Below, one piece after another: positions 17,049 through 58,678 of a stretch of DNA of 64,000 nt. A program made the translations under genes and the position numbers. The DNA is from Eledone cirrhosa (taxonomy: Eukaryota): assembly GCA_964016885.1 (NCBI GenBank), contig OZ024743.1, positions 147,498,001-147,562,000 on the forward strand. Reading direction: 5' to 3'. The first letter of the stretch is position 1. Every line of letters starts with the position of its first letter. A model generated the notes under the pieces. It saw only the letters and a list, made by a program, of their open reading frames with translations, did not search any database and was not told the origin of the DNA.

Positions 17049-17174
17049 ATATTTATTAAAATAACAGATTAAAGTTTAAGCAAAGAATCGCTGCTTTCAC
17101 CCTTAACGGGATCCCGTTAAGGGTGAAAGCAGAGATTCTTTGCTTAAACTTTATTCTGTTATTTTAATAAATAT
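17049..17174. repeat. Near-perfect spacerless palindrome made of two HHR 3' halves (family of 52180/55773)
   Basis: Centre GGGA|TCCC at 17111/17112; each arm reads TCCCgttaaGGGT-GAAA-GCAG...TTGC-TT-AAAC. Confidence 0.92.
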
Positions 17175-17251
17175 ATATATATATATATACATATATATAT
17201 ACATACTTATTTGAGAGGATGTAACGAAAGGCGTTACTCCGTTACAATCAT

Positions 17252-17368
17252 GTAATTCTACGATCGTTTCGATTAAAAGAGACATAATGCCAATCAACTA
17301 AATTAGTTAGTCACTTACTTAATTATTTCTATGAGACAGACATCCCGCAGAATCTCATCACCAAACTG
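17252..17368 (-). ncRNA. Degenerate hammerhead-like motif
   Basis: Minus strand: GTGATGA-GATT[long insert]AATC-GAAA-CGATCG-TA^; C3 altered and stem I poor. Confidence 0.45.
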
Positions 17369-18299
17369 TGTTATTTAGATGAGTCACTTGGCTCCAATTA
17401 TGTTATTATACGTGCATGCGTTCAAGGAGAGAAGGAGAAAATAAGAATAGGATATAGAAAAAGAAACACAAATTAGATAAGTTGTGTGGCGAAAAAAGCA
17501 CCCAAAATTTAAGCATTATGGAGGAAGTATAACATTGTCAGAGAGAGTTAGACAGAAAGATAAGTCACTACGCAAACCGAGACTAAAATATTCAAGTTAT
17601 GAGCGTTGATATTTATTATAATGTTAAACCTTTTTAGTGATATAGTCCATGATTGCATATACTTATATAACATATAATCATGTGATTATACTACCACGTG
17701 TGAAAAATGAACCCCTATATGAGTATTTTCTATTTAAATTCTAACCACGTGCTGATACGTAAAAGCGTATTTACACCGGTGGTAAGTTTATAAAGTATCC
17801 CGTCAATCAGAGATCCGTGGTATAGTCATGCGGTAATACCCCCACAACCTGGCTAGAGTTAGTATCGGCTTGTACAGCGGTTGGGATTTATATATATAAG
17901 CTCACAAATATCACAAAATCAAAGGGTGATTTTCTCAAATATATATATATGCGTATTGTAAGCCCCAAATTATCAATCAATATGAATACTCTCATAATGA
18001 ACGTATGGGAAAGGCTATATAGCATGTTAATTTAAGCTATTTCTTTTAATTTCGTCACCTATTACTAATGTAAAAGTGTTTAAGTCTATTATTACGTAAT
18101 AAGTATATGAGTAGACAGTAGAAACAATAAAATGGTGCAGACTTAAAGAGGTTATAATAGTACATTAAGTGGCCTCGTTTTTACTATAGTAGAATGAGTA
18201 GGAATTCCAGTGCAAACACGGAGAAAGAGTTTCAGATATCTTATTTAAGATTGTTATGAAAGACCTCATAATTACGAGTCCCTCTGTGAGACAAAGATT

Positions 18300-19625
18300 A
18301 CATTCGAGGTTGCCAGGCCTGTATGCTTGGGCAACTTTCAAAATATCTATTTGAGGGACTAATTGATATTAGATTTTTAAAAATTCAATATGAAATGGGC
18401 GAGCGTTTAAATCCCATATGAAATAACAGGTTCTCAGAATCGCGGTAGATAAGTACTGGATGTCTTAATTCACCTATGAACTGCCAGAGAGTAGTGAAAC
18501 AAAATTTCTCATAGATAATCTTTAAAAAAATGATCAGTTCGATGAAACAGCATATCAGCACAGATGTGAAAGAAACATGGGAACAACATGTGAATGAACA
18601 TATTTCTACTTATTCATGCGATACCATTTATCCACAATCTACCAATATTCCTAATAAATTCAAGGGGATTAATTTAGCTCTTATATAAAAGTAAACTGGA
18701 AATGAAAACTGGACGACCGTTATATTTTGTGGAGAGAAAGTATTGATAAACTGAACAGTTTTTAATCTCTCATTAATAATACACCTCATATCTAATTCCC
18801 AATAGATTTTAGCAACATAAAAATCTCCTTCTTAGATATACTAATACCAAAGAGAAGCTCAAATCTAGAAACTGATATATATATATCGGACCTAAGGCCT
18901 TCTGCCAATACTTTCTTTTCAATTTATTTCATCCTAAACTTACACAGACCAACACTCAATTTATTTTCTCTAAGCGAATTTGCACAATAGTCTCAAACCC
19001 AATAACAAGAGACTACAGGTTAGTAAAGATAAAAAAATAGTTATTAAAAGAAAATATCACACCTAAATGTAAACAATAATGGTATACAAAAACAAGTATT
19101 CTTAACAAGGAACTCCATGAAATCAAAGCCATATACGTGTCGTACCATATATGTCAGATTTTAAACTAAAGAATTCCGACATCCCTACGTATCTCCAACT
19201 ATAGATACCGAGTCAATTAAGAGAAAGAATAAACGAAAAACCTCTGGTAGAAATATCCAAATATACATTTAAAATATAAACAGAATTACAAACAATATAG
19301 TGACGAATGTCAAATTACATACAGTATCTAAACACTCACTATCAAAAGATGGAAACTGCACATTTCGGAGTGAGGAGGTACATTTTATGAAATGTATGAT
19401 TTATCTTCAACAATAAAACAACGTTATGCGACACTCCTAAAAATTATACAGAACGCAAGGATATAGACATTTGCGCCCCTTGTCATACACAGAGTATACG
19501 CAGTACATAACGATTCCAGCACAAATTTAATCTTGAAAATTTTACTCTGAACACCTCACGATGTTTGGAATCTTTCGGTACAAAAGATATAAATTAAGTA
19601 TTCTTTCTGCAAATGCCCTTTAAAA
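18300..19625 (+). pseudogene. Decayed Penelope-like reverse transcriptase/thumb (and probable GIY-YIG) remnant
   Basis: Manual translation gives NWK*KLDDRYILW (YxDD region), ISFLDILI, LETDIY, QYFLFNLFHPK and SKRICTIVSNPITRDYRL, matching the PLE RT/thumb pattern FLD..TDIY..HP..ARRICTIVS; many stops. Confidence 0.8.
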
Positions 19626-20099
19626 AATAATGATCATAATTTATTTTTGTTGCGCATTGTAAATTTATATGTATTTATAAACTAAATATTAAGTGCAGCT
19701 TCAACGTTTATTATTGTATTTCCTACACACACACACACACACACCCACCCACACACACACACACATATATATATATATGGTGGCTGCCAACTCGTTTTCG
19801 AGTATGGCCACTACTTTATATCCATGTAGGAGAACCCCTACCAATGCGCTGAACGAGTGTGACTTTTTAGTCCAGCCAGCGACTTGAAAACTCTGGTACA
19901 AACACTACACCTGTGACAATTATTGACACATAGTGCTGGGCCCATGGTACCATGTGATGACAAGTGCAGAGAGATCTCCAGATATAAAGCAATGCCTGTG
20001 CCGTGAAGCTTTTATAGTGAGCAAAGGCACTGCACAAAGCCAGTCCCACTCTCTTAACCAAGATAATATTTACCAAAAAGAAGAACAAGTCAACATCAT

Positions 20100-20390
20100 T
20101 GGATACCATCAGGGTTGCAGATGTTATATCAGAGTTTTCCTTCTCCTAGAATTCTGCCTTGACAAAGGCTAAGGGGTCATCTCTCCCAGTGATTTTGGAT
20201 AGCCATTGACTCTAAAGAGCTCCTTTGCCCTTTGACAGGTTTTGTTTTTAGTCCTGCAGGATGTCCAAAGTCACCCTCCTCACCAAGAAACCTTGGTGGG
20301 GTTGCCAGTTTAGTCGCCAACGACCCGACCATGGAACAGGTTGTACTGGGATACATGTTACCAGTAGCACCAACTGGTGACCTGACATAA
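20100..20390 (-). mobile_element. Probable RTE-type LINE 5' UTR fragment
   Basis: TTTCCTTCTCCTAG...GCCTTGACAAAGGCTA resembles a motif I recall from RTE-clade 5' ends; not verified. Confidence 0.35.
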
Positions 20391-56853: not shown

Positions 56854-56938
56854 TATCTCTACTACCGGCAGTTTCATTCCATCTTTGGTTATATCCGATC
56901 TTGGATAAATCAACGAGATTGGAAATCATCAGGAGATA
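56854..56938 (-). ncRNA. Type I hammerhead ribozyme, long stem II
   Basis: Minus strand: TATCTC-CTGATGA-TTTCC[..]GGAAT-GAAA-CTGCCGGTAG-TA^GAGATA. Confidence 0.93.
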
Positions 56939-57348
56939 AACTCAATTGGACAAAGATTTTTCTTACAAAATCTCCGCCAGAAACGAATTCAAAATGGCTA
57001 AGAATCGTCACGTGGCTAGTGGTCAAGGCAGAAAGTTTGTGATTGGTGCCTGTAGGCGAGTAGGCTGGTTGCTAGAGAGCGCAGCCAAATATGATTTCCA
57101 ATCTCGTTGATTTATCAAAGATCGGATATATCCAAAAATGGAATGAAACTGCCGGTAGTAGAGATATTTTGATGATTTGGGTATGTTTATGTACAATTTT
57201 TCTTCTAACTTTAATTTTGTACCTAATTATGTATGGTTAACTATATGTCTAGTCAATTCCTACAGGCTATCAGAAATACTGGATACATTTTCTGTAGCTG
57301 CGAGTCGCGGATAATAAGCTATATCATTTACCTATTATTTCTTCATAA

Positions 57349-57538
57349 GGGCGGTGAATTGGCAGTATCAGTAGAGGGTTGGACGCCATGCTTTCTATCT
57401 CAGTTACGTCCCTTTACGGTCCGAGTTCAAATCCCGCCGAGGTTAACTTTGCCTTTCATCCTTACGAGGTCGATAAAATAAAGTACCAGTAATGTACTGG
57501 GTAATTGCTGGCCTTGTGCCTAAAGTAGAAACAATTAT
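57349..57538 (+). mobile_element. tRNA-derived SINE with 15 bp TSD
   Basis: ATTATTTCTTCATAA at 57334-57348 and 57534-57548; the empty site is visible in the opposite arm (~56672). Confidence 0.95.
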
Positions 57539-57976
57539 TTCTTCATAAATATGTTTTAAACTTATAGCCACGTTTAAATGATTTTTTTGTGTGGTTTATT
57601 TATGTTGATTGGGAGAAGAAATACTATATATATTTTATCTAATGATTCTATGGACTTATTCTTTATATATTGCTCTGATTGCTAATTATTTATTTAATTA
57701 ATTCGTCATTGAGCTATACCGTCAATGGTTGCCAAAAATATACATATATCTATTGCTCTGTCTAGTTTTGTGTATATACCCTTTAAATTTTATATATATA
57801 TATATATATATATATATATATATATATATATAAGTATTGAAGTTTCCGTTGAAAATTGAAAAAGTCATAGGAATGAAGAGTACTCTATGTAAGTACCAGT
57901 ACCGTCTTAACGGCATTCCTGTCTTAACGACATCACAACTTTCTCCGCTTGGCCTGTTCCCTCCCTTTTGGAACTG

Positions 57977-58012
57977 TCCCCCGTTGATGGGCGTGAGCCC
58001 GAAATATTGGGA
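57977..58012 (+). ncRNA. Degenerate minimal hammerhead-like motif
   Basis: TCCC-CCGTTGA-T-GGGCgtgaGCCC-GAAA-TA-TT^GGGA; two core substitutions. Confidence 0.45.
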
Positions 58013-58240
58013 TTAAATCTCCACTACGGTAACCCTTCTCCCTTTGTTTTGTTTTCATCTTTGTCTCTCTCAATTTTCACTTTCACCTGTTTTTCCTATC
58101 TATCTTTCACTTCCTACCTCGAGATTTCCCTCTGCATTGTTGTGGCTTTCTTAACTACGTATTTTATATATATATATATATATAGAGAGAGAGGGAGTGA
58201 ATAGATATACAATTTAGCTTCAGTCATATTTGCATACACA

Positions 58241-58678
58241 TATGTATTGGAATTTCGGAATTTCAGAATAAATATGATATGCTTAAAATAAACATTTAGA
58301 GAGCCGTAGCTATGCCAAAACACCAGCGACTAACGTCGTCCGGCGGTGTACACCAGAAGCAAAGGGGACAATCTTGGATGCATATTTCGAACTGAACTGG
58401 TTCTCATATACAAATGAGATTAATCACCTCATTTACACAGACGCGAAAACCATATATTCTCGCCTGTTTTCAAAGTCTAGCTGTTCCAAGAGTAGGAGGG
58501 ACCGTGCTTATGAGAACCAGTTCAGTTCGAAATGCGCATCCACGATCGCCCCCCTTGCTTCTGCTCAACACTGCCAGACGACGTCAGTCACTCGTGTTTT
58601 GGCATAGCCGCTACGGGTCTCTAAATGTTTATTTTAAATATACCGTATTTCTTCTGAAATACGAAATTCTAATGCATA
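58241..58678. repeat. ~165 bp-arm diverged inverted repeat with ~100 bp spacer
   Basis: ...TTTCGAACTGAACTGGTTCTCATA pairs with TATGAGAACCAGTTCAGTTCGAAA... Confidence 0.9.
58503..58544 (+). ncRNA. Type I hammerhead with G5U substitution (probably inactive)
   Basis: CGTG-CTTATGA-GAACcagttcaGTTC-GAAA-TGCGCA-TC^CACG. Confidence 0.75.

Follow-up and report, generated by a model that had tools for sequence, protein, structure and literature searches.

The 64,000-nt stretch of Eledone cirrhosa DNA analyzed here (the window) is rich in short inverted repeats that carry hammerhead ribozymes (HHRs), which raises the question of what determines where their arms begin. A sequence-only reading had recognized them as Penelope-like element (PLE) inverted repeats, an identity that our analysis upheld, and had repeatedly placed their inner junctions in the ribozyme core or stem II, reasoning that reverse transcriptase (RT) passes an uncleaved or re-ligated cleavage site and then stalls or self-primes at the folded core. 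The PLE families concerned have thousands of copies in the E. cirrhosa genome, with family H giving the most exact matches. Family letters A–H are labels of the present analysis, H being the family that we assume the reading to have meant by that letter, and positions are counted from C3 of the HHR core, set to 0.

The elements share with EN+ Neptune-type PLEs, as described in the accessible parts of two reports (PMC8557442, PMC3846280), a C-terminal GIY-YIG-like ORF with a Cys linker, a pLTR with HHR and promoter, a one-ended tail, an inverted 5'-truncated copy, (TA)n targets and head-to-head palindromes; the tail is ~60–80 nt here versus 30–40 in the EN+ PLEs described there. Related sense-strand ORFs with the C-terminal GIY-YIG of EN+ PLEs lie upstream of family B, C, E, and H copies, and a YRDD-containing frame, also in sense, lies upstream of one family C copy (L224); no GIY-YIG ORF was found within ~1.5 kb of G, D, or A copies. 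Atlas hits for the ORFs scored 0.96–0.97 and included GIY-YIG and HTH_animal clusters, whereas Pfam matched one of five locus ORFs at E 0.005, below the cut-off, and none of three window ORFs. The Cys-rich, Zn-finger-like linker of Neptune elements (CxC..CPL..C) is present in six aligned ORFs, two of them with one substitution, although Nematis has a Cys-rich linker as well. A TA run lies within 16 nt of the 3' end in 462 of 556 cases, the flanks being (TA)n, and a one-ended tail with an inverted 5'-truncated partner characterizes 134 of 139 palindromes outside family A.

The hammerhead core (CUGANGA, GAAA, and NUH, with helices I–III) could be read by hand in all families, with variants in B (CAGAAGA) and H (U/C-UGA-U/G-AA) and a weak stem I in D. 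MFE folds recovered the three-helix form only partly, and no hammerhead was among the Rfam matches listed (150 of 210), which were mostly miRNA models on microsatellites. An unpaired U at 9/10.1, a short or self-complementary helix III, opposite-strand HHR pairs 100–700 bp apart, and tandem non-coding units (~713 nt in A, ~343 nt in F) are features in common with the minimal type I HHRs of PLEs and non-LTR retrozymes (Cervera 2014, PMC4209133; bioRxiv 10.64898/2026.07.22.740005); the accessible parts of these reports do not map junctions on the ribozyme. A MITE origin was rejected, as the ends are asymmetric (one bears the tail) and junctions vary between copies.

Table 1. PLE-derived features in the window; signed numbers are positions relative to the HHR core.
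Feature	Positions	Strand or arms	Junction and remarks
Family B head-to-head repeat	16964..17176	tailed arm 17113->16964 (-), tail-less arm 17110->17176 (+)	both arms from +5; GATC in common (17110-17113)
Family E palindrome	31790..32125	arms start at 31921 (-) and 31932 (+)	both from -45, non-native G before each; HHR cores 31876 (-), 31977 (+)
Family H solo tailed arm	34458..34595	-	begins exactly at wall +43, on an initiator-like A of loop II; catalytic core absent
Family B inverted join, two non-overlapping pieces	44635..44716		+28..+69 and +111..+154; 4-nt microhomology ATCG
Family D palindrome	47078..47437		both arms from -56, 8 nt inside wall; native near-palindrome, 9-nt overlap; cores 47239 (-), 47343 (+)
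Family H palindrome	51097..51288	tail-less arm (-), tailed arm (+)	tail-less from about +44 to +47; tailed from +51
Family B solo tailed arm	52069..52289	-	starts at -65
Family G solo tailed arm	52918..53042	+	starts at C0, within G wall (-10..+2)
Family H arm with short inverted partner	54416..54573	+	starts near +40..+44
Family C inverted repeat	54596..55370		junction >230 nt upstream of HHR; cores 54727 (-), 55301 (+); true exception
Family B solo tail-less arm	55686..55847	+	complete HHR variant, core CAGAAGA
Family A inverted repeat	56559..57737	tail-less arm 57090->56559 (-), tailed arm from 57091	tail-less from -158 (core 56932); tailed from +3; tailed arm broken by ~180-bp repeat at about 57350-57533
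Family F inverted repeat	58241..58675		left arm from +3, right arm from about -103
Another family A copy, with inverted pieces as partners	58941..59891		pieces from +103 and +318, outside HHR

The six junctions on which the core/stem II proposal rested are all located as described (Table 1). Five of them are the palindrome at 17049, the right arm beginning at ATGA (57091), the left arm ending at TATGA (58408; +3 by BLAST), the motif at 52918 without a stem I partner, and the family H copies at 51100, 54416, and 34458, whose starts, between +40 and +51, fall within the loop and 3' arm of a long stem II. At the sixth, 44637–44716, one arm does begin in the stem III loop (+28), but its partner is a tail piece (+111), and because the two have no sequence in common, this is not a fold-back.

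Across 534 distinct copies from seven families, the junctions proved non-uniform. Here, identical junctions were counted once (reducing 650 arms to 612), alignments were filtered at 85% identity, the upstream zone stopped at −200 (−90 in family E), and family H copies were located via exact patterns, its tail words being too common for DNA search. Per 100 nt at risk, 5' ends were denser in the HHR than upstream in families G (1.79 vs 0.34, p 7e-8), H (2.28 vs 0, p 5e-11), B (0.90 vs 0.31, p 4e-6), and, weakly, C (0.99 vs 0.53, p 0.04). No such enrichment was present in families D (0.36 vs 0.45), E (0.61 vs 1.14), and A (0.35 vs 0.23), or in F, for which a crude count gave 12/1478 vs 13/2488 (p 0.18). 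At least one end lies inside the HHR in 115 of 147 inverted junctions. The suggestion that RT reads through an uncleaved site is supported by the 520 of 534 arms that span the cleavage site without a pile-up there; such a pile-up, hinted at by family A BLAST ends at 230–233, was not borne out (7/2453 nt at risk in six families).

In six of the seven families, 5' ends accumulate at a sharp wall whose position is family-specific and ranges from 64 nt before the core to 43 nt after it (D −64, E −45, G −6, B −5, H +43). The best 13-nt window per family, with Bonferroni-corrected p, held 49 ends in G (−10..+2, p 6e-33), 74 in H (+37..+49, p 3e-46), 30 in B (−10..+2, p 3e-14), 12 in C (−14..−2, p 0.003), 13 in D (−67..−55, p 8e-6), and 17 in E (−55..−43, p 2e-7); the E and B wall sites were picked post hoc, with the data already seen. 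At three walls (G −6, H +43, D −64), what we take to be a TATA-like box, TATAAAT(A)/TATTTAAA, precedes an initiator-like A at the wall by 29–31 nt. No TATA box was found at −30 in families E and C; family A has a TATA/Inr-like pair at −195/−160, yet no wall (2 ends, in a sample biased toward the best BLAST hits), and family F has no wall. Other pile-ups that resembled walls, at D −293 and at B −220, together with sister-family breaks at E +34 and H +10, were dismissed as alignment breaks caused by subfamily divergence. Summed contig depth in run X1 shows a ~10-fold step at the G site and at D −64 and none at the D ribozyme, steps that do not measure copy number, that divergence among subfamilies upstream exaggerates, and that come from a run which may be the assembly's own sample. 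Run X6, which was left out of the evidence, has a step of >100-fold at the G site and only ~10-fold at D.

These positions bear directly on stalling of RT at the folded core or stem II with self-priming of the cDNA there. That explanation draws on the enrichment of ends in the HHR of families G, H, B, and C, on the joins with at least 4 nt of overlap, 9 of 21 of which have both ends in the HHR and lie in its helices or palindromes, and on a residual excess in D, E, and A, core plus stem II taking 25/4999 versus 21/6848 ends per nt at risk in families without a wall in the HHR (1.6×, p 0.065). However, D, E, A, and F show no enrichment, and the wall sits at the 5' edge of the structure (G, B) or outside it (D, E), where RT has already unwound the fold. 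The pile-up tracks a promoter-like site rather than the ribozyme, an extra G at the wall is left unexplained, and 13 palindromes have arms with nothing in common; we regard stalling as very unlikely to be the cause. A small HHR excess may remain, the summed counts for tailed arms being 62/12075 in the HHR versus 35/11649 3' of it. Ribozyme helices sometimes supply joining microhomology, at most a weak effect.

The extra G is a non-native base directly 5' of the first wall base in copies that end at the wall. It occurs in 19 of 30 untemplated ends at the site versus 36 of 200 elsewhere (p 7e-7), and in 11 of 22 versus 26 of 143 at the three sites set by TATA/Inr spacing (p 0.002). Genome-wide, it was present in 76 of the first 100 of 2,536 family G matches (expected 23%) and in 74 of the first 100 of 285 family D matches (expected 37%); a first family D sample had it in 0 of 3 ends. 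Native sequence stops at the G in 39 of 40 flanks checked; by eye, 15 of these 40 G's are clearly untemplated, 24 could belong equally to the partner arm or to a repeat, and the remaining one is a native variant. An extra G at the 5' end of full-length L1 copies has been described as a footprint of cap copying (PMC11702581), and here, too, it is likely a copied cap. A wall might instead mark the end of a processed RNA, such as a splice acceptor, or common junctions might be inherited from a few palindromic master copies: the G and B walls adjoin pyrimidine-rich ...AG motifs, the intron of D. virilis Penelope is reported to end at helix I (PMC4209133), and some junctions recur (TTTTAAAA in family E, GATC in family B). 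Splicing is contradicted by flanks that differ in 39 of 40 loci, with no common upstream exon, and master copies by the collapsing of identical junctions before counting and by one family E junction that recurs across three subfamilies. Master copies were rejected, as junctions differ between copies, and this whole group of explanations appears very unlikely.

Arm geometry further constrains the mechanism. Of the 134 palindromes that combine a tailed with a tail-less arm, 47 have the tail-less arm extending further toward 5' and 26 the tailed one, with ties in 61. In 13 palindromes the arms have no sequence in common; therefore, simple fold-back cannot have made them, and the fold-back proposed earlier is excluded in at least 13 junctions and disfavored in 47. 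Overlap averages 3.1 nt in 73 blunt or overlapping joins versus 0.76 under the null, 74 joins contain inserts, and one join (L126) lies between the two strands of stem I. Minor variants are common to both arms of one palindrome in 92 of 249 cases versus 1–8% in random pairs, with none in B or C, and fit one source RNA, fold-back, or later gene conversion equally well. These data could accommodate capped run-off in which many palindromes arise by snap-back of a single cDNA, the cap-derived C and untemplated bases self-priming and later central deletions creating the asymmetry. The near-symmetric junctions (61 of 134), the shared variants, pairs such as L394/L395 in which both arms end in the G with 1 nt between, and the reported folding back of L1 cDNA ends (PMC11702581) fit such a process, but it is hard to reconcile with solo arms that are tailed and tail-less in a 34:34 ratio when just 4 of 139 palindromes combine two arms without a tail, or with L383, L389, L399, and L400, where a G-bearing arm (tail-less in L383 and L389) is joined to an inverted tail-end piece. 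We consider snap-back quite unlikely as the source of many palindromes.

We propose instead, as the probable origin of the palindromes, that an uncleaved sense RNA is copied into two cDNAs by separate primings, that both run off its capped 5' end, and that they are then end-joined head to head. The wall would be the pLTR transcription start, as deduced from DNA; each nicked strand of the (TA)n target would prime at one of two RT start sites within the RNA, just 100–250 nt from the RNA 5' end, and repair would trim a few nt into that end. HHR helices would sometimes provide joining microhomology, as any native short inverted repeat would. Closeness to the transcript start would explain why the HHR is found in or next to the wall in G, B, H, and C; in family H, the putative start is within loop II, and transcripts beginning there would be without the core. 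Two of the three counter-examples named by the sequence-only reading fit a start site, with both arms at −45 plus the extra G (31926) or 8 nt inside the D wall (47291). The third (54942/55085) is a true exception and likely a product of read-through RNA; longer copies in general may derive from read-through or tandem RNA.

In L1 twin priming, the inverted parts of one RNA are mostly non-overlapping, whereas the two cDNAs proposed here would begin 60–80 nt from each other and cover one shared 5' region, so that an inverted duplication results. The two systems would resemble each other in a second priming on the opposite target strand, in joins at microhomology, and in a cap-derived G (PMC11702581). 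In an in vitro PLE reaction, both strands are extended from a pair of internal start sites, with no need for HHR cleavage (PMC11167929); this Poseidon PAc system (Frangieh 2024) would share with our elements two-strand extension, two tail-defining RT starts, uncleaved RNA, and a predicted dimer, with strand/start pairing nearly fixed here by comparison (134 of 139). The accessible parts of that paper do not treat genomic inverted repeats, junctions, or cap copying. Arkhipova 2013 explained palindromes by self-priming on an antisense template (PMC3846280), whereas a capped sense RNA and two primings are indicated here by where the G lies, at the sense 5' end, and by how the arms are arranged. 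The origin of PLE inverted repeats was counted as an open question by Craig 2021 (PMC8557442), and we found no earlier junction or cap analysis of PLE palindromes in the freely accessible main texts of published papers.

A more speculative extension, which we think unlikely, is that insertion proceeds by obligatory twin priming, with an RT dimer holding two copies of one capped transcript and the HHR serving mainly to pair RNAs through helix III rather than to cut. Each strand would then be primed at its own site, and the genome would hold tens of thousands of strong-stop-like palindromes; an HHR acting as an RNA-pairing device through a self-complementary helix III would explain why family H starts inside the ribozyme and keeps only helix III. 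The junction statistics of one genome favor capped sense templates and two primings, lend in vivo support to the two-strand, two-start chemistry known in vitro, and map likely transcription starts from DNA alone, at exact, testable positions. The run-off reading would also explain the excess of short non-coding palindromes over long copies.

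The hammerhead ribozyme (HHR)-linked junction pattern is real, but its main cause is probably different from ribozyme stalling. The window, part of a 3.0-Gb genome, is AT-rich, rich in microsatellites and contains, after masking, approximately 10 head-to-head repeats flanked by (TA)n, most of which carry a minimal type I hammerhead on reading by hand. Palindromes of different Penelope-like element (PLE) families, labeled A–H, are often neighbors within one (TA)n tract (sampled loci L124, L131, L180, L196, and L202). Long copies of families B, C, E, and H extend into an ORF that is GIY-YIG-like and has a Cys linker, and a long family C copy also runs into a YRDD frame; by these features, the families would be Neptune-type PLEs. 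A search within about 1.5 kb turned up no ORF for G, D, or A. The six junctions described in the sequence-only reading are all present. The 44637 piece, previously described as inverting in the stem III loop, comprises two family B parts joined via ATCG and, because these do not overlap, cannot be a fold-back. No hammerhead was recognized in the four further inverted repeats, one of which (33113) is approximately 70% like family A.

Repeats in the window and 5'-end statistics by family (peak positions relative to C3 of the hammerhead core; rates are 5' ends per 100 nt at risk, HHR/upstream; matches are genome totals of exact patterns)
Feature	Window coordinates	13-nt peak	Rate	Matches
Family A	56559, 58941		0.35/0.23	
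Family B	17049, 44637, 52069, 55686	-10..+2	0.90/0.31	9,255
Family C	54662	-14..-2	0.99/0.53	4,147
Family D	47149	-67..-55	0.36/0.45	2,958
Family E	31793	-55..-43	0.61/1.14	3,326
Family F	58241			
Family G	52918	-10..+2	1.79/0.34	12,522
Family H	51100, 54416, 34458	+37..+49	2.28/0	21,203
Inverted repeats, TA-flanked	33113-33713, 44945-45389, 9047-9334			
Inverted repeat	60202-60416			
~180-bp repeat (examples)	4196-4376, 7918-8108, 15092-15487, 41141-41327, 57352-57540			
Tandem units (cores)	9800-10836 (10112, 10531), 27381-28103 (27490, 27946)			
342-nt copies (cores)	10896-11713 (11139, 11615)			

The sample combined 10-kb stretches at 80 evenly spaced positions; for G, B, H, C, E, and D, the 30 matches per family listed first for exact patterns 3' of the ribozyme; for D, G, B, and E, 20 more regions per family surrounding the matches that came next in the list; and, for family A, the top 30 hits of a 3' query. 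Each 5' end was placed by stringent pairwise alignment together with profiles built from natural long copies. Among 726 arms extending 3' of the cleavage site, 76 with <85% identity and 38 with identical junctions were removed; 534 of the 612 retained reach the ribozyme. Against a uniform null, the proposed concentration of junctions in the ribozyme holds for G, H, B, and C (p 0.04 for C) but is absent in D, E, A, and F, the family F excess (crude count, 25 loci) being nonsignificant. Core plus stem II in D, E, and A gave 25/4999 vs 21/6848 (p 0.065).

In six families the 5' ends form a sharp peak, or wall; family A has no sharp peak. With the wall excluded, the ribozyme rate across these families is 125/19881 vs 21/3898 between wall and ribozyme. 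Stalling of reverse transcriptase at the folded core after copying an uncleaved site, as the sequence-only reading had it, is very unlikely as the main cause. The wall in G, H, and D has an initiator-like A at its 5' edge, 29–31 nt downstream of what we take to be a TATA-like box. Family B has TTAGTT without a TATA box, and neither TATA box nor initiator is clear in E and C. Summed contig depth in sequencing run X1, which does not give copy numbers, rises approximately tenfold across the G site and, for D, is high through the ribozyme and falls at -64. In long H copies (L184, L200, and L204), the approximately 40-nt loop II contains both a TATA-like box and the wall, and the core is degenerate; therefore most H copies lack a catalytic core, and H is nevertheless the family richest in exact matches. 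Nearly all B copies have a CAGAAGA core (U4 to A) with stems I and III intact (55775–55830; L146–L175). A start site carried by the pLTR is already described for Penelope (PMC8557442).

A non-native G directly 5' of the first base, read as a copied cap, precedes arms ending at the predicted first base in 19/30 cases vs 36/200 elsewhere; at the three sites whose position follows from TATA/Inr spacing, the counts are 11/22 vs 26/143 (family D alone, 0/3). Genome-wide, among the first 100 non-native matches listed for family G, 76 carry it (12 A, 12 T; by eye; expected 23%), and among the first 100 A-or-G matches listed for family D, 74 do (expected 37%). Native upstream sequence is absent in 39 of 40 inspected G-bearing loci; on hand reading, 15 G's are clearly untemplated, 24 could be a base shared with a repeat or with the partner arm, and one is native. 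A splicing or master-copy artefact is a very unlikely source of the pattern. Both arms of the 31926 palindrome bear the extra G. In L1, an extra G reflects the mRNA cap, according to PMC11702581. The start sites and the copying of the cap are inferred, as is the activity of the ribozyme.

Among 139 non-A palindromes, 134 join an arm with the PLE tail to a tail-less one, four have no tailed arm, and one has two; solo arms number 34 tailed vs 34 tail-less. The tail-less arm extends further 5' in 47/134, and the arms of 13 palindromes share no sequence; since a fold-back copy cannot contain sequence missing from its template, both observations count against fold-back. Snap-back at the cap seems unlikely. 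Run-off at a start site combined with twin priming is the probable main cause of the pattern. Overlap averages 3.1 nt at 73 joins (null 0.76), with inserts at 74 others, and long overlaps draw on native inverted repeats inside (9/21) and outside the ribozyme. Minor variants are common to both arms in 92/249 cases and therefore point to one source copy or later homogenization. The two-armed pattern matches the purified Anolis PLE, which starts at two internal sites on RNA left uncleaved and extends both strands (PMC11167929). It departs from the proposal of PMC3846280, in which palindromes arise by self-priming on an antisense template.

The ~180-bp repeat (about 17 window copies, one interrupting the 56559 element within its right arm) bears what we take to be a tRNA B-box-like motif and is probably a SINE. 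The tandem units of about 420–460 nt, each with a hammerhead core and an inverted end piece, are retrozyme-like and matched in 14/80 unbiased loci; the two 342-nt copies, with hammerhead-like cores, are 99.7% identical and 476 nt apart. Families A (about 713 nt; L020–L022) and F (about 343 nt; L419, L439) occur as head-to-tail tandem units and have no wall; tandem or circular RNA may be their template. The 800 kb in the evenly spaced stretches contain 56 arms of families G, H, B, C, and E, which extrapolates to on the order of 2e5 per genome. If transcribed, the palindromes would fold into hairpin dsRNA.
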